64,000 bases of DNA from Gemmatimonadaceae bacterium (lineage in GTDB: Bacteria; Gemmatimonadota; Gemmatimonadetes; Gemmatimonadales; Gemmatimonadaceae), in the NCBI GenBank assembly GCA_036278895.1, contig DASUKE010000035.1, positions 15,433 through 79,432 on the forward strand, written 5' to 3'. Below the pieces are notes generated by a model that was given only the letters and a program-made list of their open reading frames with translations, searched no databases and was not told the origin of the DNA. Numbering within the stretch: the stretch's first letter is position 1; each line of letters opens with the position of its first letter. This document shows positions 38,971 to 57,225 of this stretch, piece after piece. Position numbers and translations under genes: made by a program.

Positions 38971-41187
38971 ATGACGCACCGAGCAGTGAGCAGTTGCATG
39001 GCCGCGGCCATGCTGGCATGCAGCGTGGCCGGTACGGTGAAGCTGCACGCGCAGGACGCCGGTCACGATTCCGTCGCGGCACGGAGCCGCACCGGCCGGC
39101 GCCTCTTCAGCAGCAGCGATGCGCTGCGGGTCGCGCGCGTGTTCTCACCGCGCCTCTCGTCTGATGGATCGCGCGTCGCCTATCTCGTCGCCAACGTGGA
39201 GATGAAGAAGGACGAGGCCGGCAAATCGGTGACCAACCTCTGGATGGTCCCGGCCGTCGGCCCCGAGACCGCGGCGAGACAGTTCACGCGCGGCGACCGG
39301 AGCGTCTCCGATCCCGAATGGTCGCCCGACGGGCGGATCATCGCGTTCATCAGATCGACCGGCGACGAGAAGGATGCGAAGCCGCAGGTGTGGTTCATGT
39401 ACGCCGACGGCGGCGAACCCTGGCAGGTGACGAAGCACAAGGCCGGCGTCCGCGGCTTCGAGTTTTCGCCGGACGGAAAGACGCTGCTGCTCATTGCCAC
39501 GAGCCAGCCCGACAGCGGCGACGAGGCGCGCCAGAAGGTCAAGGACGACGCCGTGGTGGTTGATCACGATTTCCGGATGGCCGCGCTGTGGACGTGGTCC
39601 ATCGCGACCGGAAGCGAGAAGCGCATCACGAACGACACCGTTTCGGTCACCGAAGCGCGCTGGTCACCCGATGGCTCCCGCATTGCCTTCACGGCGGCGC
39701 CGACCCCGCGGCTGGATGACACGGATCTCCGCAGCGCCTACGTCCTGGATGTCGCCACCGGGCACGTGCGCAAGCTCGTCGAAACGACAGACGCCACAGG
39801 AACCGCGCGCTGGTCGCCCGATGGGGCGCAGATAGCCTATGTGACCGCCAAAGGTGCCGGTCCATATCAGACGAGTCTCTACGTCGTGGCGGCGAACGGC
39901 GGGGCGCCGCTCAAGCTGACCGCGAATTTCGCGCTCGATGCGGGCGAGCCCTTCTGGTCGCCCGATGGCAAGACCATCTACTTCACGAGCAACACGCGAG
40001 AGTCCGTCGAGGTATTCGCGGCGAGCGTGGGCGGCGGAACGGTGCGCCAGGTCACCACCACGCCCGGAGTCATCCAGCTCGCTGGCATTGATCGCGATGG
40101 ACGCACCGCCATCGGCACGTTCACCGATCCATCGCACCCCGCGGATGTGTTCCGCTGGTCCAATGGCTTCACGTCCTCCGCGGCGATCACGCGGCAGAAC
40201 GCCTGGCTCGCCGACTACGCGCTCGGCGCCACCGACGTGGCGCAGTGGAAGAGCAGCAAGGATGGGCTCGAGATCGATGGCATCGTGACCAGGCCCGTGG
40301 ACTACGATGCATCTCGCAAGTATCCGTTTCTCCTCAATCCGCACGGCGGCCCCACCGGCGCGTCGCTGCTGTCGTTCAACGCGACCGAGCAGGTGATGGC
40401 GGCCAACGGGTACCTCGTGCTCGAACCCAACTTTCGCGGCTCCACGGGACGCGGCGAAAAGTTCGAGTCGGCGAACGTGAACGACTGGGGTGACGGCGAC
40501 TATCAGGATGACATGAGCGGCGTGGACGCCATGATCGCGCACGGCTGGATCGACCCGCAGCGCATGGGTGCGTTCGGCTGGTCGTACGGCGGCTACATGA
40601 CGTTCTGGATTGACACCCAGACCGACCGCTTCAAGGCCATCTCACCCGGCGCCGGTCTTCCTGATCTGTACTCGATGTACGCCGAGACGGACATCCACCG
40701 GTATCTGCGCGAGTTCTTCGATCTCAAGGCGCCGTACGACAACTACCAGGAGTACTGGAACCATTCGCCAATGAAGTACGTCGCGAAGGTGAAGACTCCC
40801 ACGATGATTCTGCACGGGCAGGCGGACACCCGCGTGCCGATCCCGCAGGCGGAGGAGTTCTACCGCGCGTTGTACGATCACCACGTGCCGGTGGAGTTCG
40901 TGACGTATCCGCGCGAGAATCACGGCTTCGCGGAGCCACGCCACATTCAGGACCGGCTGCAGCGCTATCTCGTATTCTTTGGCAAGTACCTCGGCAACCC
41001 GCCGGTCACGGAACCGGCGGATGTGGTCACGCGAATGACCAGGGACCTGCCGGGGGCGGTCCGCACCCCACCCCCCGCCCTTGGGAATGGGCAATCGGGA
41101 ATGGGGAATCGTGGGAATGGGGAATGGGGAGGCCGATTCCCCATTCGCACGGCTCCACTCGGGATCAAAGGGTTCAGAGTCGATTGA
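38971..41187 (+). CDS. S9-family prolyl oligopeptidase/acylaminoacyl-peptidase with TolB-like beta-propeller
   Basis: ATG 38971 is preceded by GAGGA and begins a signal peptide. Repeated WSPDG blades are present. Motifs: GWSYGGYM nucleophile, HGQADTRVP, ENHGF. The last ~60 codons read through GGGAAT repeats and may not belong to the native protein. Confidence 0.9.
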   Translation: MTHRAVSSCMAAAMLACSVAGTVKLHAQDAGHDSVAARSRTGRRLFSSSDALRVARVFSPRLSSDGSRVAYLVANVEMKKDEAGKSVTNLWMVPAVGPETAARQFTRGDRSVSDPEWSPDGRIIAFIRSTGDEKDAKPQVWFMYADGGEPWQVTKHKAGVRGFEFSPDGKTLLLIATSQPDSGDEARQKVKDDAVVVDHDFRMAALWTWSIATGSEKRITNDTVSVTEARWSPDGSRIAFTAAPTPRLDDTDLRSAYVLDVATGHVRKLVETTDATGTARWSPDGAQIAYVTAKGAGPYQTSLYVVAANGGAPLKLTANFALDAGEPFWSPDGKTIYFTSNTRESVEVFAASVGGGTVRQVTTTPGVIQLAGIDRDGRTAIGTFTDPSHPADVFRWSNGFTSSAAITRQNAWLADYALGATDVAQWKSSKDGLEIDGIVTRPVDYDASRKYPFLLNPHGGPTGASLLSFNATEQVMAANGYLVLEPNFRGSTGRGEKFESANVNDWGDGDYQDDMSGVDAMIAHGWIDPQRMGAFGWSYGGYMTFWIDTQTDRFKAISPGAGLPDLYSMYAETDIHRYLREFFDLKAPYDNYQEYWNHSPMKYVAKVKTPTMILHGQADTRVPIPQAEEFYRALYDHHVPVEFVTYPRENHGFAEPRHIQDRLQRYLVFFGKYLGNPPVTEPADVVTRMTRDLPGAVRTPPPALGNGQSGMGNRGNGEWGGRFPIRTAPLGIKGFRVD

Positions 41188-41248
41188 TTTTCATCAGCCG
41201 GCAGCGACCAGCCACCAGCTACCGTGGTTTAACCAGCTGTTCAAGCGA

Positions 41249-41391
41249 GACAGGATTTCAGGATTGACGGGATCAACAGGATTCTCACGGCGCCGTTCCA
41301 AAAGCATTTGCCGTCATTCAGCGAACGGACTGAAACTTTGAGACTCAGCTCCCAACAATCCTGTTAATCCCGTCAATCCTGAAATCCTGTC
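41249..41391 (+). repeat. Inverted-arm repeat element, copy 1 (MITE-like/REP-like, 143 bp)
   Basis: The left arm GACAGGATTTCAGGATTGACGGGATCAACAGGATT and the reverse complement of the right arm match at 34 of 35 positions. The conserved core reads CTCACGGCGCCGTTCCAAAAGCATTTGCCGTCATTCAGCGAACGGACTGAAACTTTGAGACTCAGCTCCCAAC. It is followed by CTTCTTTTTG and lies between convergent genes. Confidence 0.85.
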
Positions 41392-41415
41392 TTCTTTTTG
41401 GCGATCAACGGGCAG

Positions 41416-43161
41416 CTACTGCCGGCACGCGCCGTGGGGATCAGGCTTCGGGTGATCCACCACCGGCCGGTGATCCAGATCGGCCACGTGCACGGCGATG
41501 TCCTCCACGAGATTGCCCACCTTCGCCATGTGCGTGTAGTCGATGTATTCCGGCTCGTCCGTCACCTGGTGATAGTCCGAGTGCAGTCCGGTGGTGAAGA
41601 ACGTGATCGGAATGCCGTAGCGCGCGTACTCGTAGTGGTCACTGCGGCAGTAGATGTTGGACGGGTGACCATCCGCATCCAGTGAATAGTCGAACTGCAT
41701 GTCGTGGTGATCCTCGCGATTGACCTGTTCCACGATGTTGCCCAGCTCCGTGGAGAGGCGCCGCGAGCCGACGAGCTGCAGATAGTTGGGACTCCCATGA
41801 ATCGGCGTACCATCCTTGGTGCGCCCCGTCTCATCGCTCGCGTCGCCGCGCCCCACCATGTCCATGTTGAGCTGCGTGACGATCGAGTCGCGCGGTACGG
41901 TGGGATGGTCGGTGAACCAGCGCGAGCCCAGCAGCCCCTTCTCCTCCCCCACGTGCCACACGAAGAGAATCGAGCGCTTGGGTTTCACCTTCATGGACTG
42001 GATCTTCTGCGCGATCTCGAGCACCGTCACCGACCCGGAACCATCGTCGTCGGCGCCGTTGTCGATCGAGTCCACGCGCATGGAGTGCGGATACTTCGCG
42101 CGGAAGGCCGCGAGCTCGCTGTCGGCCTGCGCCTGCTGCGCCGGCGTCGCCTGCTTGCGTCCATCATCGGCGCCTTCGGGACGCACGATGTGATTCCAGA
42201 TGCGGAGCGAGTCGTGATCCACCGGCCGCGCATGATCGCCCAGGTGATCGTTGTGGGCGCCAATGGCGACGTATTCCGCCTTGAGCGCGGGGTCGCTGCC
42301 GGGAATGATCCCCACGACATTGCGCGCGGGATCGGCCACCGGCGTCACGCTGTACTCCACATCCACGGCGGCGGTCTTGCCCGCCGTGCCCGGCGCGAGG
42401 CCGTCCACCGGTGCATCGAACATGCGCGCCGCGGCGGCCTTGCTGATGATGAAGGACGGGGTCTGCGCCGGACCGTCGGCCGCGCCCTCATCCAGGAACT
42501 GCCGCGGCCGCTTCACGAACGCGAGCGCCGCCGGCGGAATGTCTTCGAGCTCGATCACGGCAATGGCGGCGGCGCTGGGCACCGGCCGCATCGCGGCGCG
42601 CGTGCGGCGCAGGCGCGCGCGCGCATCGGTCGCGGCGTAGACCACGAGCTTGCCTTTCGCCTGATCGTCGCTGATGGTCGCGGCTGAGTCACCCACGGTG
42701 CCGCCGAACACGATGGGCACCGATGGATTGGTGAACGAGTCCGGGCCCAGCGGCACGAAGTCGGTGAACGGCATGAGCGCCGCGCCGTTTACGGCAAACG
42801 TCGGATTGTCCTTGAGCGCGCGCGTCTTGAGCGGAATGGTCTGGAAGTACGTCCCGTTATCGCCCGCGGGCACGAGCCCCATCTTCTGAATCTCGTTGGC
42901 GATGTAGGTCGTGCCCTTCACGTTGCCCAGCGTGCCGGCCTCGCGACCCAGCATGGAGTCGTCGGAGAAGATGTAGAGCCGCGTGCGGAGATCCGCGGGC
43001 GTGATGTCCGCCGTGGTGGGCTGCGGCGCGTGCATGCGCGCGGCGGGCACGTACGGGTCGAACGCGGCGGGTGCCGCGCCGGTTGCCGGCGCGCTGCCAC
43101 GCGCGCACGCGGCGCCGAGCAGCGCGAGCGCCGCCGCGGAATGCTTCAGGTAGGTGTGCAC
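41416..43161 (-). CDS. M28-family aminopeptidase with PA domain, lipoprotein
   Basis: MHTYLKHSAAALALLGAAC lipobox. Motifs: GAHNDHLG, GADDDGSGSVTVLEIA, FVWHVGEEKGLLGSRWF, RSDHYEYARYGIPITFF. Confidence 0.9.
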   Translation of the reverse strand: MHTYLKHSAAALALLGAACARGSAPATGAAPAAFDPYVPAARMHAPQPTTADITPADLRTRLYIFSDDSMLGREAGTLGNVKGTTYIANEIQKMGLVPAGDNGTYFQTIPLKTRALKDNPTFAVNGAALMPFTDFVPLGPDSFTNPSVPIVFGGTVGDSAATISDDQAKGKLVVYAATDARARLRRTRAAMRPVPSAAAIAVIELEDIPPAALAFVKRPRQFLDEGAADGPAQTPSFIISKAAAARMFDAPVDGLAPGTAGKTAAVDVEYSVTPVADPARNVVGIIPGSDPALKAEYVAIGAHNDHLGDHARPVDHDSLRIWNHIVRPEGADDGRKQATPAQQAQADSELAAFRAKYPHSMRVDSIDNGADDDGSGSVTVLEIAQKIQSMKVKPKRSILFVWHVGEEKGLLGSRWFTDHPTVPRDSIVTQLNMDMVGRGDASDETGRTKDGTPIHGSPNYLQLVGSRRLSTELGNIVEQVNREDHHDMQFDYSLDADGHPSNIYCRSDHYEYARYGIPITFFTTGLHSDYHQVTDEPEYIDYTHMAKVGNLVEDIAVHVADLDHRPVVDHPKPDPHGACRQ

Positions 43162-46292: not shown

Positions 46293-46338
46293 GGATGCGC
46301 GGCGCGATGCCGGTGGCGCGAACCGGCTTCCCCTGAAT

Positions 46339-46493
46339 GACAGGATTTACCGGATTCACAGGACTGACAGGATTGATTCGAGCCGAATCCCAAGGTTTCA
46401 GTCCGTTCGCTGAATGACGGCAAATGCCTTTTGGAACGGCACCGTGTGATTCCTGTTGATCCGGTGCATCCCGTGAATCCCGTTAATCCTGTC
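46339..46493 (-). repeat. Inverted-arm repeat element, copy 2 (inverted orientation, 155 bp)
   Basis: The reverse complement reads ...GGATCAACAGGAATCACACGGTGCCGTTCCAAAAGGCATTTGCCGTCATTCAGCGAACGGACTGAAACCTTGGGATTCGGCTCGAATCAATCCTGTCAGTCCTGTGAATCCGGTAAATCCTGTC. This is collinear with copies 1 and 3. It lies between the convergent pheA and DinB-family genes. Confidence 0.85.
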
Positions 46494-46570
46494 CGGTCGT
46501 GAGCAGTGGCGCAGCACGCTACTCGAATCCGCGGCACAATTCGACTGGCCCAGACAATCCTCCCCCGCAA

Positions 46571-50795: not shown

Positions 50796-52198
50796 CTCAC
50801 CTCTCTTCCAAGATAGATCACGCGCCAGACGCGGCCGCGCACATCGTCCGCGATGTACAGCGCGCCTTCGGGTCCCACGGCCACTCCCGCCGGGCGATGC
50901 GCGGCCTGTCCCGGCTGCTTGTTCGCCCCGGCAAATCCATCGGCGAACAGCTCCTGCGGCGCACTTGCGCTGTCATGACTGAAGGGCACGAAGGCCACGA
51001 GATAGCCCTGTTGCGGCAGCGGCGCACGGTTCCACGAGCCGTGGAACGCGATGAACGCGCCGCCCTGATATCGCGCCGGAAACATGTTCCCCGTGTAGAA
51101 CGCGAGTCCCAGCGGCGCCCAGTGCGCCGGGAAGAACGTCACCGGCGCGCGTTTCGATGCGCACATGCCCTGCTTCGCACCATCGCCGCCGTACTCGGGC
51201 GCCAGCACGAGCTGCTTCTTCGCGCCGTCATAGTAGCAGTAGGGCCAGCCGTAGTCACTGCCCTGCACCACGTGCATCAGCTCCTCCGCGGGCAGCTCGG
51301 CGCTCTGCTGTGCCGTGTACAGCTTCGGCCAGTTGCTGGAGAGCTGGTCGCGGCCGTGCATGGTGGAGAACACGGCGCCGGAGGGCGCAATCGCGATGCC
51401 ATCGGCGTTGCGGATGCCGGTCGCATAGCGCTCCGCGGCGGAGAACTTCTGTCCGGTGCGCGTCGCGCTGAACTTCCAGATGCCGCCCCGCGTCTCGAGC
51501 TCCGTGCACGGCTGGTGACCGGGCGACCGCAGTGTACGATTCTTCTCCTGACACGAATTGGTGGCCGAGCCGAGGTCGACGAACATGTCGCCCGCCGCAT
51601 CGATGGCGAAGGGGTGCATCGGGTGGTCGCCCGTGAGCGGCAGACCGGAGACGATCACCGCCGCCGATCCCGCGGGCGCAATGCCCGACGATGGGAGTGT
51701 GTAGCGCACGATGCGGTCACTTTCCTCGGCGTAGAGCGATCCCGCGTGCAGCCCGATGCCGGTGCCGCCATGTCCGCCCTGCTGCGCGCTCGGACCGAAG
51801 CGCGTGATGACATCGGCACGTCCGTCGCCCGACGTGTCCTGCAGCGCGACGAGAAATCCGCCGGGGTGCGGCGTACCATTCCCGTAGTAGTTCCCGCTCC
51901 ACGTATTCACGTACACCACGCCGTTGGGCGCGACGACGAGATGCCGTGCATGGCCCAGGCTGTCCGCGAACACCGTCGCGCAGAATCCCGCCGGCAGCGT
52001 GAGACCGCCGTTGTCGGCCGCGCACGCCGCTTTCGTGGGAGCGGCGGCAGTGGTCGTCGCGGAGTCGCTCGCCTTCGCCGGCGCGCGCGATTCACCCTTG
52101 GTGCATGCCGCCATCGCGGCAACCGCGCCGAGCAGCACCGTGGCCGCCCGGGCGCGGTGGATCATATCCGAAGTCGTCAGCATCATCGCCATGGCCAT
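50792..52198 (-). CDS. PQQ-dependent sugar (glucose/sorbosone) dehydrogenase-family beta-propeller lipoprotein
   Basis: ATG 52198 (MAMAMMLTTSDMIHRARAATVLLGAVAAMAAC). Motifs: LTLPAGFCATVFAD, ATGIRNADGIAIAP, GSDYGWPYCY, FHGSWNR, PAGVAVGPEGALYIADD. Confidence 0.8.
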   Translation of the reverse strand: MAMAMMLTTSDMIHRARAATVLLGAVAAMAACTKGESRAPAKASDSATTTAAAPTKAACAADNGGLTLPAGFCATVFADSLGHARHLVVAPNGVVYVNTWSGNYYGNGTPHPGGFLVALQDTSGDGRADVITRFGPSAQQGGHGGTGIGLHAGSLYAEESDRIVRYTLPSSGIAPAGSAAVIVSGLPLTGDHPMHPFAIDAAGDMFVDLGSATNSCQEKNRTLRSPGHQPCTELETRGGIWKFSATRTGQKFSAAERYATGIRNADGIAIAPSGAVFSTMHGRDQLSSNWPKLYTAQQSAELPAEELMHVVQGSDYGWPYCYYDGAKKQLVLAPEYGGDGAKQGMCASKRAPVTFFPAHWAPLGLAFYTGNMFPARYQGGAFIAFHGSWNRAPLPQQGYLVAFVPFSHDSASAPQELFADGFAGANKQPGQAAHRPAGVAVGPEGALYIADDVRGRVWRVIYLGREVR

Positions 52199-53193
52199 GT
52201 CCAGAGTTCGAATTCGTTCGCAACCGCCGACACGATCCCCACCCGTCCGTGCTGCTCGTCCATGCTCACGTCCGCCGGAACGACTTCGAGATGGCCGATG
52301 CGCCGCACCAGCCGGTTGCTGTCGAGCGTCGAGACACTGGAGTCGTTCCAGCTCGTGATGAGAATGCGTCCGCCGCGCTCGATCTCGATCCCGTCGAATC
52401 TGCCCTTCCCTCTCGTGATTTCCACGGGCCCGGGCTGCCCGACCCGCCACTCCTGTATGGATATTCCGCCAAAGGGCGCCAGCACGAACCGGCGACCGTT
52501 GGCATCCCATGCAATGCCATCCGGCATGGCGAGCGATGGCGTATCCAGCGCCACCGTCACCTGGTGTCCACGACTGATCCTGAAGATGCGATCCGGACCC
52601 GTGTGCGTGCTCTTCCCGTCCGGCGCGACGCTCATGCCGGTGTCCGTAATGTAGATGCTGCCGTCCGCCGCGAAGGTGAGATCGTTGAGAAAATGGCCGT
52701 GCGCCTGCGGAACATCAATCTCGGCGAGCGCCTTGCCCGTGCGCGTGTCAAAGGCGCGCAGCGCATCCACATCCAGCACCCAGAGCGTGTCGCCCCGGAT
52801 CCGCGACCCCATGGGGGCGTTGAGCACGACGTTGTTCCGCCCGCCCTTGATGAAGTGCAGGCTGTCGAGCTTTCCGTCCGCGGTGATGCGGGTAATGAAT
52901 CCGCTGTCGTTCTGTACGCCGAACGGTCCGTTCGCGTTGCTCACGAAATAGAAGTGCGTGCGCGGATCGTACGAGAGGGCTTCCGGCACGCTGAGCCCCT
53001 GCACGACGGCCAGCCGCCTGGGCTGCGAGTCGGCGCCCGCCGCACGGGCGAGTGCCGCGAGCGCCCCGGCACGCCGCGGTGCCGCCGCCAGCAGAACGGA
53101 AACCGTCGCCAGCGCAGCGCATCCTGTTGCCATGATCGCCGCGCGGCGCGCGAACCGGCGCGACCCGGCGGCGGACTGCGTGCCGCGATGCAT
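52183..53193 (-). CDS. Secreted six-bladed beta-propeller protein (SMP-30/gluconolactonase/LRE- or NHL-like)
   Basis: ATG 53193 is in frame with the over-extended track ORF 52183..53697. A Tat/Sec-like N-terminus is present (SRRFARRAAIMATGCAALATV). Repeated motifs: ..PEALSYDP.., ..LNDLTFAADGSIYITD.., ..PDGIAWD.., ..FDGIEIE... Confidence 0.6.
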   Translation of the reverse strand: MHRGTQSAAGSRRFARRAAIMATGCAALATVSVLLAAAPRRAGALAALARAAGADSQPRRLAVVQGLSVPEALSYDPRTHFYFVSNANGPFGVQNDSGFITRITADGKLDSLHFIKGGRNNVVLNAPMGSRIRGDTLWVLDVDALRAFDTRTGKALAEIDVPQAHGHFLNDLTFAADGSIYITDTGMSVAPDGKSTHTGPDRIFRISRGHQVTVALDTPSLAMPDGIAWDANGRRFVLAPFGGISIQEWRVGQPGPVEITRGKGRFDGIEIERGGRILITSWNDSSVSTLDSNRLVRRIGHLEVVPADVSMDEQHGRVGIVSAVANEFELWTWPWR

Positions 53194-53294
53194 GATGTGC
53201 TCTCCGAATCGAGTGGTCACGGGACCGAGCAGGCTCCGCGCGGGAGAGGCGCAACAGTCATGCCCGCCGGCACTCCCGCGACCGGCCACCCCGC

Positions 53295-53366
53295 GCCCAT
53301 CGCGACCGGCTACCTCGGGCCCATCGCGACCGGCCACCTCGGGCCCATCGCGACCCGCTACTGGGC
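53295..53366. repeat. 24-bp tandem repeat x3 (GCCCATCGCGACCGGCYACCTCGG)
   Basis: Units start at 53295, 53319 and 53343. The third unit runs into the stop codon (53358-53360) of the mechanosensitive-channel gene. Confidence 0.8.
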
Positions 53367-55382
53367 CGTCGTATCCTGCGGCAAGTTCATGGTCACCTGC
53401 GACTCCCCGGCCACGGCATCGTGCAGCGTCTTCACCATGAGCTGGTCGTTGGCCGCCGCGCGGTCGGGCAGCACCGGATAGCGCACGGTGAACTCGAAGC
53501 CGGTGTCCGTGTAGCGCACATCCACACGCGGCTCGGGCGAGGTCGTCTCGAAGTCCACCAGCCGCTGCACCGCGGCGTGCTGCGCGTCGATCGTCTCCTT
53601 GTATGTGCCGTAGACCGATTCGGCGGCCGCCTGCAGCCGCTCCTGCACGGCGCGCACATCCGTCGTGGGCGCGAGCGTGAGCGTCACCGAGTGCCATACG
53701 TACTCGGCGCCGGGGATCTGCTTGAACAGCGCCTCGGGCTTGAACAGCACCGCGTTCGACAGCACGACGATGCGCCCCGTGGGCTGCAGCTCCGGACCGG
53801 ACAGCTCCATCACGTACAGACGGATCAATCCGATTTCCACCACGCGGCCCGTCACGCCGGCGAGCGTGATGCGATCGCCCAGTCGCACGCCGTAGCGCCC
53901 GATGAGAAAGAAGTACGCGACGACGGCCAGGATCACGTTCTGCAGCGCCACCGCGATGCCCGCGGTGAGGAAGCCCACGTAGGTGGCCAGCGAGCCGATT
54001 TCCGAGACGAATCCGAGAAAGAGGATGACGAGCAGCGCGATCGCGACGGCCACGCGCCGCAGCAGGAGAAACTGGCGGCGGCGGCGTGTGTCGTGCAGGT
54101 ACTTGAAGGTGGCGCGACGCCAGAATTCCGAGATGAGCAGCACCAGCGCGATGCAGAGCGCGAGCACCGCGGCGCGGAAGGCAATGTTGCGCGCGACCTC
54201 GAGCGCGCGCTCGCTGAAGGTCGTGCTCAGTGCCGCCAGCGTACCGCGCGCATCATCCATCGTGATGTCCTGTTCGCTGAGCGGAACCAGCACGGTGGAC
54301 AGCTTCCGGAACTGCGCCGTGGCGGTCTCGGTCTGGCGCTGCGCCACGACACTCGCGCCGGTACTGGTCGATAGCGTATCGGCCATGCTGGTGCGGACCA
54401 GCGTGCTCACCTGGCGGCCCACGGCGCGACGCAGGCTGTCCAGCTCGCCCGACAGCCTGTCGGTCGTCTTGATCGCGTCGTCCACCTGCCGGCGCGTGGC
54501 GCGCAGGGAGAACCATTCGCTGGCCAGCGGGATGAGACCCGCAGACGACGGGCGGATGGCCACGGTGGAGGAGACGGACGCGTTGCTGGCGGGTGACGGT
54601 ACGCTGACGCTCGCACCGGTGTCGGCCGTCCCGGTGCGACCCGCCGTTTCGCGCGACGCCGAGGCCGCGCTGCGCGTCTCGGGCACCGTGCGTTGCAGGT
54701 CGGCGATCTGCGTGGCGAGCGACGCGGCGCCGCCGCCCGCGGACGTTGATCGTGCCGCGAACTGCTGGAGTTGCACGACCGTCTTCTGTACTTCCAGGGT
54801 GAGGTCGAGCGAGGCCTGTACCTGCGCCCGACGCGTGGTGAGCGAGTCCCGCGTTCGCGCGCGTGCACTCGCGATCTCGGTGTCGAGCTCCTTCACCCGC
54901 GACTGCAGCGCGGACGCGCGCGCGGCGAGGCGTGCTCTCGTGCGCGCCATGCGCGCCGCGTCATCGGATGAGTCCGGCGGCGCGCTTCCGGCGACAGCTG
55001 CACCGGGTCCGAGCACGGAGGCAGCGGCGTTGCTGAAATAAAAGGCGAACTGAACGGCCGCGATGGACGACTGTCGCAGGCGCTCGCGATCCACTTCGTC
55101 ATCGGCCAGCCCGGATGACTGGCCCAGCGCGGTCAACTGGCGATACCAGTCCACCGTTCGGGTGAGGTGCTCAAGAACCTGTGTTCCCGTCACCGAACCC
55201 AGCGGCGGCGCGGGAGCCGCTGGAGTCTGCGCAACGGCCGCCGGGAAAATGCCGGCGGCCGCGAGCAGGATGGCGAGACGCGCAACGAGAGCGAAACGGA
55301 TACGAGGCCTGCGCGATAGGGACGCTGGCACGAGCGACGAACGAGCTACGGAAATGTCGCCACCCCCCGGGTCCTTGTCCAC
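53358..55382 (-). CDS. Mechanosensitive ion channel (MscS-family, MscK-like long form)
   Basis: GTG 55382. A signal-like N-terminus and a long coiled-coil periplasmic region are followed by TM helices and the MscS core GDRITLAGVTGRVVEIGLIRLYVMEL. Confidence 0.85.
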   Translation of the reverse strand: MDKDPGGGDISVARSSLVPASLSRRPRIRFALVARLAILLAAAGIFPAAVAQTPAAPAPPLGSVTGTQVLEHLTRTVDWYRQLTALGQSSGLADDEVDRERLRQSSIAAVQFAFYFSNAAASVLGPGAAVAGSAPPDSSDDAARMARTRARLAARASALQSRVKELDTEIASARARTRDSLTTRRAQVQASLDLTLEVQKTVVQLQQFAARSTSAGGGAASLATQIADLQRTVPETRSAASASRETAGRTGTADTGASVSVPSPASNASVSSTVAIRPSSAGLIPLASEWFSLRATRRQVDDAIKTTDRLSGELDSLRRAVGRQVSTLVRTSMADTLSTSTGASVVAQRQTETATAQFRKLSTVLVPLSEQDITMDDARGTLAALSTTFSERALEVARNIAFRAAVLALCIALVLLISEFWRRATFKYLHDTRRRRQFLLLRRVAVAIALLVILFLGFVSEIGSLATYVGFLTAGIAVALQNVILAVVAYFFLIGRYGVRLGDRITLAGVTGRVVEIGLIRLYVMELSGPELQPTGRIVVLSNAVLFKPEALFKQIPGAEYVWHSVTLTLAPTTDVRAVQERLQAAAESVYGTYKETIDAQHAAVQRLVDFETTSPEPRVDVRYTDTGFEFTVRYPVLPDRAAANDQLMVKTLHDAVAGESQVTMNLPQDTTAQ

Positions 55383-55537
55383 ACGTCGCTCTGGTCTCGC
55401 CGCGTCGCGAGCGCGACCGGTGCAGCGCGCCGGCGATCGAGGAGCGTACCGCGCGCCGGCGATCGGCGGGACAGGATTTCAGGGAAATCCGAGCTTGCGT
55501 GGTTCCGGGCAGCCTGCTCCAGCCCTGCTAACGGCTG

Positions 55538-55682
55538 GACAGGATTTCAGGATTGACAGGATTCACACCGATTCTCACGGCGCCGTTCCCAAAGCAGTTG
55601 TCGTCGTTCAGCGAACGGACTGAAATTTTGAGTCTCGGCTCCCAACAATCCTGTTCATCCTGTCAATCCTGTAAATCCTGTC
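55538..55682 (+). repeat. Inverted-arm repeat element, copy 3 (145 bp)
   Basis: The sequence reads GACAGGATTTCAGGATTGACAGGATTCACACCGATT-CTCACGGCGCCGTTCCCAAAGCAGTTGTCGTCGTTCAGCGAACGGACTGAAATTTTGAGTCTCGGCTCCCAAC-AATCCTGTTCATCCTGTCAATCCTGTAAATCCTGTC, followed by ATTTTTTTG. Arm fragments also occur at 55470-55490 and 55706-55715. Confidence 0.85.
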
Positions 55683-55750
55683 ATTTTTTTGTCTGTTGGT
55701 TGCGCAAATCCTGTCAGCTACACGAAGCAAAGCCCGGTGTCCGCTACCTG

Positions 55751-56236
55751 TCACTCACAGGACTGAACAGGCTCGACAGCATTCGCGACCTGGGAAATCG
55801 TCGGCAGAACGATGGACTGTTCTGGTGATGGCGATACGTCCTGCAGAGCCTGTCGTGATGTCCGCGAACGATACGTGTGCACTTTCCTCTGAAATTGCAG
55901 CGACGCTGAGCCGAAGTTGAAAAGTAACCCAACCTCCATGCGCGTCGCGGCGAGGTAGTTGACGAGTTGGGCACCGTGAGCTGGCCCCAGCGTCTGAACT
56001 GACTTGATCTCCACGAGGACACAGCCAGCCACCACCATATCGGCCACGAAATTGCCGACGACCACGCCGTCATACTGCACCCGAATCCTGCGGGCGCATT
56101 GCACGGGAAGAGTCGCCTTCCGCAATTCATGCGCGAGCGCATTCTGATACACCGACTCGAGAAACCCCGACCCGAGTTTCCGATGCACCATCATCGCACA
56201 ACCAATGATGGCCCGTGTCACGTCCTCATGCTCCAT
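55751..56236 (-). CDS. GxxExxY protein (PD-(D/E)XK nuclease superfamily) with C-terminal read-through tail
   Basis: ATG 56236 is preceded by AGGAGG. The sequence reads IIGCAMMVHRKLGSGFLESVYQNALAHEL...VADMVVAGCVLVEIKSV...HGAQLVNYLAATRMEVGLLFNFG. The track start 56275 is over-extended. About 35 extra C-terminal residues exceed the usual family length. Confidence 0.85.
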   Translation of the reverse strand: MEHEDVTRAIIGCAMMVHRKLGSGFLESVYQNALAHELRKATLPVQCARRIRVQYDGVVVGNFVADMVVAGCVLVEIKSVQTLGPAHGAQLVNYLAATRMEVGLLFNFGSASLQFQRKVHTYRSRTSRQALQDVSPSPEQSIVLPTISQVANAVEPVQSCE

Positions 56237-56276
56237 CAATCCCTCCTGCATGCACCCTCCACTGACACCGCCCAAT

Positions 56277-56315
56277 CAGGAATCCTGTCAATCCCGTGAA
56301 TCCTGAAATCCTGTC
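56277..56315. repeat. Solo arm of the repeat element, upstream of the GxxExxY gene
   Basis: CAGGAATCCTGTCAATCCCGTGAATCCTGAAATCCTGTC has the same sub-repeat structure as the right arms of copies 1 and 3. Confidence 0.8.
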
Positions 56316-56498
56316 CAATGTTCTGCCAGAAAAATGGATTCTCCATTGGACTTCGCCGCACCATTATCATGCCCGCAGGAGCATTGCCCTGCGCTCCTAC
56401 GTCGCTCCCGGAACACCCGGCGCGCCAGCATCGTTTCACCAGAGTCGGAACGCGACAAGCCTGCGCCGCGCATCTTCCACTCGCAACACGGACCACCC

Positions 56499-57206
56499 AT
56501 GGATCTCTCCACCGCGAAAGTGCTCGTCACCGGCGGCAGCTCGGGAATCGGCTTCGCCACCGCCAAACGCCTCGCTGACGCCGGCGCCCGCGTCGCCATC
56601 TGCGGACGCAATGCCGCGGCGCTCCGCACCGCCGCAAAGGAAATTGGCGCCACGCCCATCGAAGCCGACGTGAGCCGCGAAGCCGACGTCGCGCGTCTCG
56701 TCGCCACCGTCATCCGCGAGCTCGGCGGCTACGACACGCTCATCAACAACGCGGGCTTTGGCCGCTTCGCGCCACTCATCGACATGACGACCGCTGACTT
56801 CCGCAGCGTCTGGGAAACCAACGTGCTCGGCGCCATGCTCGTCGCCCGCGATTCGGCGCGCCACTTCGTGCAGCAGCGCCGCGGCAATATCGTCAATGTG
56901 GCGTCGACATCCGGCCAGCGCGGCGGCGCCAATGGCACCGCCTATTCGTCGAGCAAGTTCGCGCTCGCGGGACTCACCGATGTGTGGCGCACCGAACTCC
57001 GGCAGTATGACGTGCGCGTCATGCAGATCAATCCGAGCGAGGTGCTCACGGCGTTCCGCGCTAACTCTGGCCGACCGGGTCCGGCCGAGAACCAATCCAA
57101 GCTCCACGCCGATGACATTGCCGCGGTGATCGCGGACATGCTGGCGCTGAGCGATCGCACCCTAGTGAAGGATGTTACCGTGTGGGCCACCAATCCCATT
57201 GATTGA
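56499..57206 (+). CDS. Short-chain dehydrogenase/reductase (SDR)
   Basis: ATG 56499 starts MDLSTAKVLVTGGSSGIGFATAKRL (TGxxxGIG). Motifs: NNAG, and YSSSK (YxxxK) with upstream Ser. Confidence 0.9.
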   Translation: MDLSTAKVLVTGGSSGIGFATAKRLADAGARVAICGRNAAALRTAAKEIGATPIEADVSREADVARLVATVIRELGGYDTLINNAGFGRFAPLIDMTTADFRSVWETNVLGAMLVARDSARHFVQQRRGNIVNVASTSGQRGGANGTAYSSSKFALAGLTDVWRTELRQYDVRVMQINPSEVLTAFRANSGRPGPAENQSKLHADDIAAVIADMLALSDRTLVKDVTVWATNPID

Positions 57207-57225
57207 TTGATTGATTGATTGATTG
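57198..57225. repeat. (ATTG)7 tetranucleotide microsatellite spanning the SDR stop codon
   Basis: Seven perfect ATTG units were read directly. The SDR stop TGA (57204-57206) lies inside the repeat. Confidence 0.9.

Follow-up and report, generated by a model that had tools for sequence, protein, structure and literature searches.

How does a small nuclease gene come to lie among the arms of a short inverted repeat that also occurs, without any gene, elsewhere in the same DNA? The question is raised by the locus at 55470-56315 of a 64,000-nt stretch of a Gemmatimonadaceae contig (DASUKE010000035.1), here called the window, in which a GxxExxY gene of the PD-(D/E)XK superfamily stands beside one of three copies of a gene-less repeat element. 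A reading of the letters of this DNA alone, which we call the original prediction, had proposed that the gene is physically linked to the inverted-arm repeat family, either as its mobility or processing nuclease or as something that the repeats spread. Here, we report that GxxExxY genes and inverted arms are indeed linked, that the association is strong, and that it holds across the TIGR04256 family and in many phyla. The window protein belongs to a known family and is ordinary in itself; what surrounds it suggests a selfish gene cassette of a kind that is widespread but has hardly been described.

Matched Inverted Arrays Enclose GxxExxY Genes

The sample comprised 80 loci with relatives of the window protein in metagenome contigs, 64 of them with full flanks. 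An array was called where at least two sense units lay within 150 nt upstream of the gene, or at least two antisense units within 250 nt after the domain, variants of the unit being allowed; background windows lay more than 700 nt from the gene and were called with at least two units. Sense units were found upstream of 48 of the 64 homologues and antisense units downstream of 59. Arrays were present on both sides of 47, against 12 of 871 background windows (1.4%), an enrichment of about 50-fold at both gene ends that bears out the physical link proposed by the original prediction. The commonest layout is an array, the gene, and an inverted array; the unit has the consensus ACAGGAT[T/G]N, is usually present three times, and in 76% of cases recurs every 9 nt. 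The ATG frequently follows the last upstream unit at a distance of 5-8 nt.

The same result is obtained when no motif is specified. Alignment of each upstream flank to the reverse-complemented downstream flank of the same gene gave a median score of 40.5 (17 for shuffled sequences); 36 of 68 loci, but none of the shuffled controls, scored at least 40. The variable spacer letters of the two arms of a gene agree in register in 33% of cases, compared with 11% when the arms were permuted between loci, and none of the 2000 permutations reached 33%. Nearly every family member examined lies between matched arrays of a short repeat, and a large family thereby gains a concrete and testable partner, namely its flanking arrays, as DNA or as RNA.

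The unit differs by lineage, yet it matches between the two sides of one gene. Units of the type GGACTGAAGAA are found in Gemmatirosa, CACAGAGGA in Bernardetia and Bacteroides finegoldii, ACGCGAAGG in Sphingomonas, and CACGGATTCG in Treponema, and CAGAAT/ATTCTG, CACGGAT/ATCCGTG, and other unit types have the same layout. Eight plasmid or chromid records, of diverse phyla, show the array-gene-array architecture built of such other units.

Approached from the opposite direction, the link looks different. A 17-nt word from the arm led to 117 genome loci in the Acidobacteriota, Bacteroidota, Verrucomicrobiota, Planctomycetota, and Gemmatimonadota, and a GxxExxY open reading frame (ORF) was present at two of them; most of the 117 are short gene-less hairpins or solo arms, and the unrelated neighbours of the gene-less hairpins include sufC, dnaJ, and nrdR. 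Most arms, therefore, adjoin unrelated genes. The original prediction had reckoned with a coincidental adjacency, to be recognized by other GxxExxY copies of the genome that lack the arms or by arms that are equally frequent beside unrelated genes: on the first point, most of the homologues sampled from metagenome contigs do carry arrays, whereas on the second most arms do stand beside genes of other kinds. The ACAGGAT hairpins dispersed in several phyla are explained by this result.

An Intact Nuclease of a Known Family

The window ORF matches PF13366 with an E value of 6.6e-38 (130.1 bits; cut-off 22) and TIGR04256 with 137.7 bits (cut-off 35). PF13366 was the sole match in the profile search, in which no recognised transposase, no HUH/Y1 (RAYT) domain, and no PF05635 appeared. 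The nuclease domain takes up residues 5-119 (55880-56224), and both the GxxExxY residues (G24, E27, Y30) and the catalytic D...E-x-K residues (D66, E76, K78) are intact; the 79 homologues compared all have E27, Y30, D66, E76, and K78, and almost all have G24. With a dN/dS of 0.08-0.09, the domain is under purifying selection. The AlphaFold model has a pLDDT above 90 over the domain, and residues 126-154 are disordered. No solved structure matched by sequence, and comparison of the fold with solved structures gave weak matches to Cas4, alkaline exonucleases, and Hjc (E about 0.01). There was no match for the protein among the defence and phage families of PADLOC and PHROGs, and one relative was found on viral contigs.

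In a survey of PD-(D/E)XK proteins, the function of PF13366 was listed as unknown and its multiple transfers were remarked on (Steczkiewicz et al. 2012; PMC3424549). The TIGR04256/PF13366 family is large: a search of the whole library at E <= 0.001 gave 14,928 clusters (50% identity). Many representatives of 250-295 aa (P0246, P0254, P0257, and others) contain two tandem GxxExxY domains; such proteins may have arisen by read-through fusion of neighbouring cassettes or may be genuine two-domain proteins.

The Window Locus

Every feature that the original prediction had listed at 55470-56315 is present in the sequence (Table 1); the solo arm that it placed at 56277-56315 is also there, although it starts at 56280. 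Read on the minus strand, the order is a four-unit array, the leader, the GxxExxY ORF, an arm-end fragment, an A7 run, the 145-nt short element, and a mini-hairpin remnant. The array upstream of the gene consists of four ACAGGATT units and ends 44 nt before the ATG, which was placed at 56236 because the homologues begin with MEHE. A T7 run (55684-55690, plus strand) lies just past copy 3 of the short element, and the mini-hairpin has a stem of 7 bp, GGATTTC/GAAATCC, with a 3-nt loop. The cassette is bounded by a 674-aa ORF on one side and, on the other, by a short-chain dehydrogenase/reductase (SDR) gene, which is on the plus strand, upstream and divergent. No Rfam family matched the whole window at the gathering score or the region 55400-56400 at E <= 1, and no rRNA was found by Rfam within the window.

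Table 1. Positions of the cassette parts and short elements in the window.
Feature	Position	Strand	Remark
Upstream (5') cassette arm	56280-56315	minus	Four tandem units, GACAGGATT/TCAGGATT/CACGGGATT/GACAGGATT, sense to the gene
5' leader, arm to start codon	56237-56279	minus	Shine-Dalgarno AGGAGGG at 56241-56247
GxxExxY PD-(D/E)XK nuclease gene	56236->55751	minus	161 aa plus stop
Decayed terminal hairpin, translated as C-terminal tail	55756-55864	minus	Inside the end of the ORF
Sense-type units of the decayed hairpin	55837-55864	minus	CAGGCT, CAGGAC
Antisense-type units of the decayed hairpin	55756-55783	minus	AATGCTGTC, GAGCCTGTT, CAGTCCTGT
Arm remnant, terminal 10 nt	55706-55715	plus	AAATCCTGTC; also kept in L118
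Gene-less short element, copy 3	55538-55682	plus	Arms 55538-55573 and 55647-55682; 73-nt core 55574-55646
Mini-hairpin arm remnant	55470-55490	plus	GACAGGATTTCAGG, then GAAATCC
Gene-less short element, copy 1	41248-41392	plus	Between convergent genes; 36-nt arms 97% complementary
Gene-less short element, copy 2	46331-46501	minus	Diverged; between convergent genes

The arm upstream of the gene is complementary to the left arms of copies 1 (92%) and 3 (91%). The arm pieces nearest to the gene (55647-55682, 55706-55715, and 56280-56315) share one orientation, so that the upstream arm has as its inverted partner either the far arm of copy 3 or the decayed hairpin in the tail of the ORF. With the far arm, a long stem enclosing the gene is possible, as 55536-55567 and 56286-56317 are 91% complementary over 32 nt, and the predicted fold of the whole 796-nt transcript is closed by the pairing of these two arms.

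The Tail of the Protein

The domain ends near residue 119 and is followed by a tail of about 40 residues, at which position better-preserved close relatives read RQDEQDGQD...HPVNPVHPV. The tail of these relatives is an in-frame translation of CAGGAT units, a loop, and ATCCTGT units, and the window tail, QALQDV...VANAVEPVQ, is a decayed copy of this terminal hairpin and no longer folds better than shuffled sequence (z = -0.39). The original prediction had taken this tail for a sign of a recent junction, a view that must be abandoned: the tail is shared with P0001, a protein 92% identical to that of the window, and with locus L118, and so the junction is not recent. The upstream arm can be translated too, as seen in the N-terminal extensions of P0002 (LTGLTGFSGLTG) and P0004 (MDRIDRIDRMNRM). 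A recurrent annotation artefact is thus explained, N- and C-terminal "extensions" such as QDxQD, LTGLTG, and NPVNPV being translated arms.

At L118 (880-1200), a close relative, the first 34 GxxExxY codons and the upstream arm are replaced by the 3' part of a gene that, as judged by eye, resembles a tyrosine-recombinase gene. The join falls exactly at the shared peptide AHELRKA and is either a rearrangement or an assembly chimera.

Insertion, Stability, and Exchange

In Sphingomonas parapaucimobilis, a gene with inverted arms of about 30 nt lies between fabD and fabG, whereas in S. paeninsulae no hairpin is present and fabG comes immediately after fabD; in seven further records the match spans fall about 430-450 nt short of the filled site, consistent with the empty state. 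The comparison is one between species, in a lineage other than that of the window, and to judge from it, arms plus gene are inserted as one block. The "cargo-carrying version" of the repeat that the original prediction had considered fits this arrangement.

At the window site itself, relatives that share the SDR protein P0123, 91% identical to that of the window, have a GxxExxY cassette at the same place, and SDR-gene relatives at 86% identity have a different left neighbour; there is therefore no clean empty-site comparison for the window cassette. Among the filled relatives, two contigs with an identical SDR protein P0123 differ in the number of arm units, ATCCTGT(C/T)A, with four in L198 and five in L200. 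Between L200 and the window, dS is 1.67 for the GxxExxY gene and 0.58 for the adjacent SDR gene, a gap that would fit replacement of the cassette or a weaker constraint on synonymous sites.

At about 10% of the loci (L217, L126, L184, L154, L156, and L136), the gene lies between direct repeats of 70-160 nt, each made of the whole hairpin and some host flank. In L217 (2300-3110) and L126, these repeats take in the last codons of the upstream gene, and L217 has a further, diverged remnant of the 3' end of that gene downstream. Neither the window copies nor the Sphingomonas junction showed a short target-site duplication, although at the latter the species have diverged too far for the boundaries to be placed at base level. 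Recent transposition was considered and rejected, as P0104 and P0119 recur on many contigs without any change of genomic context; as a rule, then, the cassettes are stable.

The gene is co-oriented with the gene upstream of it in 30 cases, compared with 11 in the opposite orientation (p = 0.004), and likewise in most annotated examples. Some cassettes lie in defence operons: in L205, a GxxExxY gene has a ResIII-domain gene on one side and the gene of a DNA methyltransferase on the other, and in L234, a viral contig, it stands between an apparent hsdM and hsdS (by eye).

The Gene-Less Short Elements

The window contains 24 copies of CAGGATT, where 4.3 +/- 2.2 would be expected; not one of 100 shuffled versions had as many, and the repeat is therefore no chance feature. 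The three full elements have 36-nt inverted arms and a 73-nt core in common. Copy 3 is 90% identical to copy 1 over 105 nt and is predicted to fold as a single long hairpin (z = -5.8), and copies 1 and 2 have no GxxExxY gene nearby. The possibility that the core is a deletion derivative of the gene was rejected, as the core matches solely other short elements of the Gemmatimonadaceae.

Copy 1 (41162-41248), L086 (5736-5850), and L117 (451-561) have in common about 85 nt to the left of the arm, and copy 1 (41393-41418, TTCTTnTGGCGATCAAyGGG), L006, and L086 have in common about 25 nt to the right; the short element of the Gemmatimonadaceae therefore exceeds 145 nt. In L117, the arm is followed by a different sequence with a possible gene start. 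Just upstream of copy 1, at 41083-41141, there is a 7-nt array, GGGAATG repeated 6.6 times, followed by an inverted unit (CGATTCCC), and CATTCCC/GATTCCC arrays of a similar kind flank the elements in L006 and L086. The GGGAATG array is a second type of hairpin array attached to the short element.

PF05635 Genes and the Intervening Sequences of rRNA

Inverted arrays of this kind are not confined to GxxExxY genes. L180 has two genes of PF05635 (23S_rRNA_IVP, S23p; a four-helix bundle), each with flanking inverted arrays, and short-unit arrays flank all six of the PF05635 genes from plasmid or chromid records. One of the six (L238, Azospirillum; arms GACAGAGGACGGA/TCCGTCCTCTGTC) is located within a 23S rRNA gene (Rfam LSU, 715 bits) and is a classical intervening sequence (IVS). 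None of the sampled GxxExxY loci lies inside 23S rRNA, as no match to 23S flanks was found. PF05635 genes, too, lie in defence operons, between cas10 and cmr3 (L235) and between cas6 and cas4 (L240).

The IVS of Coxiella has a 28-bp terminal stem and two or three tandem GACAGAT heptamers just before the start of S23p; the number of heptamers varies between strains, and RNase III cuts at the first repeat (PMC4990558). The origin and mobility of IVSs are stated to be unknown, the questions of their mobility and of the role of their ORF having been open since the early 1990s (PMC4990558). The GxxExxY family is now tied to this unexplained origin.

The likeness between the cassettes described here and the ORF-bearing 23S rRNA IVSs of Coxiella, Leptospira, Brucella, and Azospirillum (S23p/PF05635) is extensive. 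In both, terminal inverted repeats enclose a small ORF (in the IVS they form a stem of about 28 bp), tandem repeats of 7-9 nt precede the start codon, with the GACAGAT of Coxiella close to GACAGGAT here, and the element is co-oriented inside a host transcript. The number of repeats is variable in both, so that the difference between L198 and L200 parallels that between Coxiella strains. On the contrary, the window cassette lies outside rRNA, its ORF encodes a PD-(D/E)XK nuclease (PF13366) and not a four-helix bundle, many gene-less copies are dispersed in the intergenic DNA of the same genome, and the unit is common to several phyla. Moreover, RNase III cleavage is observed in Coxiella, whereas here it would be expected by analogy alone.

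A Proposed IVS-Like Cassette, and Other Explanations

We favour, with moderate confidence, the explanation that the locus is an IVS-like hairpin cassette outside rRNA, with the nuclease as its cargo and the short elements as its gene-less relatives. Such a cassette would consist of a small ORF, here the intact GxxExxY nuclease, enclosed by inverted arrays of a unit of about 9 nt, usually in three or four copies; it would reside in ordinary intergenic or operon DNA, and the 145-nt elements would be members with the same arms and no gene. By analogy with the rRNA IVSs, read-through from a host gene would transcribe the cassette, and the two arrays would pair as a long RNA stem cleavable by RNase III. 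Cleavage of this stem could insulate the host transcript and hold the expression of the nuclease low, and insulation would account for the tolerance of cassettes between fabD and fabG, in res/mod and hsdM/hsdS pairs, among cas genes, and in rRNA. More tentatively, the arrays may act at the DNA level, offering repeated homology or a cruciform for gain, loss, and exchange of the cassette; the nuclease, as cargo, may help this process and is not demonstrably its engine.

Several observations weigh against this explanation. About 17% of the aligned arm positions are mismatched, and those compatible with G-U pairing on the sense strand are in no excess (77 vs. 69, p = 0.56), so that selection for a sense-strand RNA stem is not demonstrated. 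At the window locus, the near 3' arm is decayed (z = -0.39, as above), and a long stem needs the far arm of copy 3; furthermore, because the upstream SDR neighbour is divergent, read-through cannot apply to the window gene. Lastly, a near-identical ACAGGAT unit is found in hosts of 35% to 69% G+C, a conservation which suggests that the unit has a sequence-specific partner. RNase III would be satisfied by any stem, and the need for a stem alone therefore fails to explain why the unit is conserved.

It is possible, though rather doubtful, that the cassette is instead an autonomous, nuclease-driven element of the homing or REPIN-RAYT kind (hairpin-forming repetitive extragenic palindromes, REPs, with a REP-associated tyrosine transposase). 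The GxxExxY protein would then recognise and cut the ACAGGAT arrays, or their cruciform or hairpin form, and so drive a recombination-dependent copying of the cassette, and it would also spread the gene-less short elements in trans. The arms do resemble terminal inverted repeats, and gene-less copies with the same arms are present in the window and in many genomes, but the gene itself stands at very few arm loci (two of 117). The catalytic triad is intact and under strong purifying selection, and the protein (about 50-65% identity) and the unit are both conserved across phyla, as would be expected if one reads the other; the type of unit also changes along with the protein lineage. The same arms, however, surround the unrelated, non-nuclease PF05635 genes, the rRNA IVS included, which favours the nuclease as "cargo" over the nuclease as "engine". 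Insertion as a block in Sphingomonas, the dS gap between the GxxExxY and SDR genes of L200, which fits cassette replacement, and the direct repeats at about 10% of the loci, which fit duplicative or Campbell-type insertion at hairpins, agree with an autonomous element, whereas the lack of a visible target-site duplication and the single context of two proteins found on many contigs do not. It also counts against such an element that the matches to the nearest solved structures are weak, and that we know of no transposase made of a lone PD-(D/E)XK domain.

A related and bolder proposal, which we regard as unlikely, is that GxxExxY nucleases are the mobility component of IVS-like hairpin elements in general: they would cut the arms as duplex, hairpin, or cruciform, seed the copying of cassettes into other hairpins, generate the gene-less hairpins, and place the elements in operons and rRNA genes. 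If this were true, these elements would form a class of bacterial mobile element not defined before, with a lone PD-(D/E)XK domain as its driver and with members in the Gemmatimonadota, Acidobacteriota, Bacteroidota, Verrucomicrobiota, Planctomycetota, and other phyla.

The arms might also be merely local expression signals, a promoter or operator upstream and a terminator downstream, unrelated to mobility or to the short elements, but this is improbable. The AGGA of the last upstream unit, which is often close to the ATG, can act as a Shine-Dalgarno sequence, and T-runs follow copies 1 and 3; in most phyla, however, T-runs precede and A-runs follow the hairpin, which is the reverse of an intrinsic terminator, and a search of 55300-56520 found nothing resembling a sigma-70 promoter or a terminator. 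Signals of this kind would also leave unexplained why gene-less hairpins with the same arms are common beside unrelated genes such as sufC, dnaJ, and nrdR, and why the arms arrive with the gene in Sphingomonas. That the gene merely happens to lie in a repeat-rich intergenic region can hardly be believed, for although most arm copies, including copies 1 and 2 of the window, have no GxxExxY gene beside them, the array enrichment at both ends of 64 independent homologues, the matching across the gene of arms with different unit sequences in other phyla, and the flank-alignment and arm-permutation tests already contradict it.

Relation to Other Known Systems

By membership tests, the cassette fits none of the rRNA IVSs, the REPIN-RAYT systems, the insertion sequences (IS) with their miniature inverted-repeat transposable elements (MITEs), or the integron cassettes; in its working it is most like an IVS. 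With REPIN-RAYT systems it has in common a nuclease-type gene that is stable in its genomic context and flanked by short palindromic repeats, which are also scattered without the gene in intergenic DNA. The enzyme, however, is of the PD-(D/E)XK type, whereas that of the RAYT systems is an HUH/Y1 transposase; the arms, which begin with GACAGGATT, are arrays of 9-nt units in tandem and not GTAG/CGTC-tagged palindromes of 20-40 nt; the GxxExxY family is multi-copy; and an unrelated protein family shares the arm architecture.

The cassette resembles a MITE and its parent IS in having terminal inverted repeats, in having short non-coding derivatives that share the ends alone with the coding version, and in that most arm copies, as with MITEs and REPINs, lie without the gene beside unrelated genes. 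Whole-unit presence/absence polymorphism (at fabD-fabG, between species) and a variable number of arm repeats are further points of likeness. It differs in that no target-site duplication was seen, no transposase was recognised, and identical copies in different contexts were not found. The Foldback elements of eukaryotes have inverted repeats built of short tandem repeats, and the arms described here are structurally like them.

Like free-standing homing endonuclease genes, the GxxExxY gene is a small selfish nuclease gene with a patchy phyletic distribution, lying between or inside conserved host genes and operons, defence operons included. The flanks here, in contrast, are the element's own repeats and not a host target gene, and cleavage by the nuclease is putative. 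With regard to integrons, inspection of the arms and of the unit consensus, with no formal attC model run, revealed no GTTRRRY core site, and no integron cassette array is evident, the cassette being directly bounded by the 674-aa ORF and the SDR gene. Among open-access papers and preprints, we found none that links GxxExxY genes to flanking arrays or describes dispersed ACAGGAT hairpins, and the literal repeat sequences had no match in the literature.

Other Repeats in the Window

The 9-nt tandem repeats at about 23.9-24.8 kb were considered as hairpin arrays and rejected, as they lie inside long coding ORFs; a further 9-nt tandem repeat is present at 6.9 kb. At 53277-53355, a 24-nt tandem repeat (3.3 copies, 92% matches) in the minus-strand ORF 52183..53697 encodes the peptide repeat GPEVAGRD. 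A perfect (ATTG)7 microsatellite at 57198-57225 covers the last codons and the stop codon of the SDR gene and extends beyond them.

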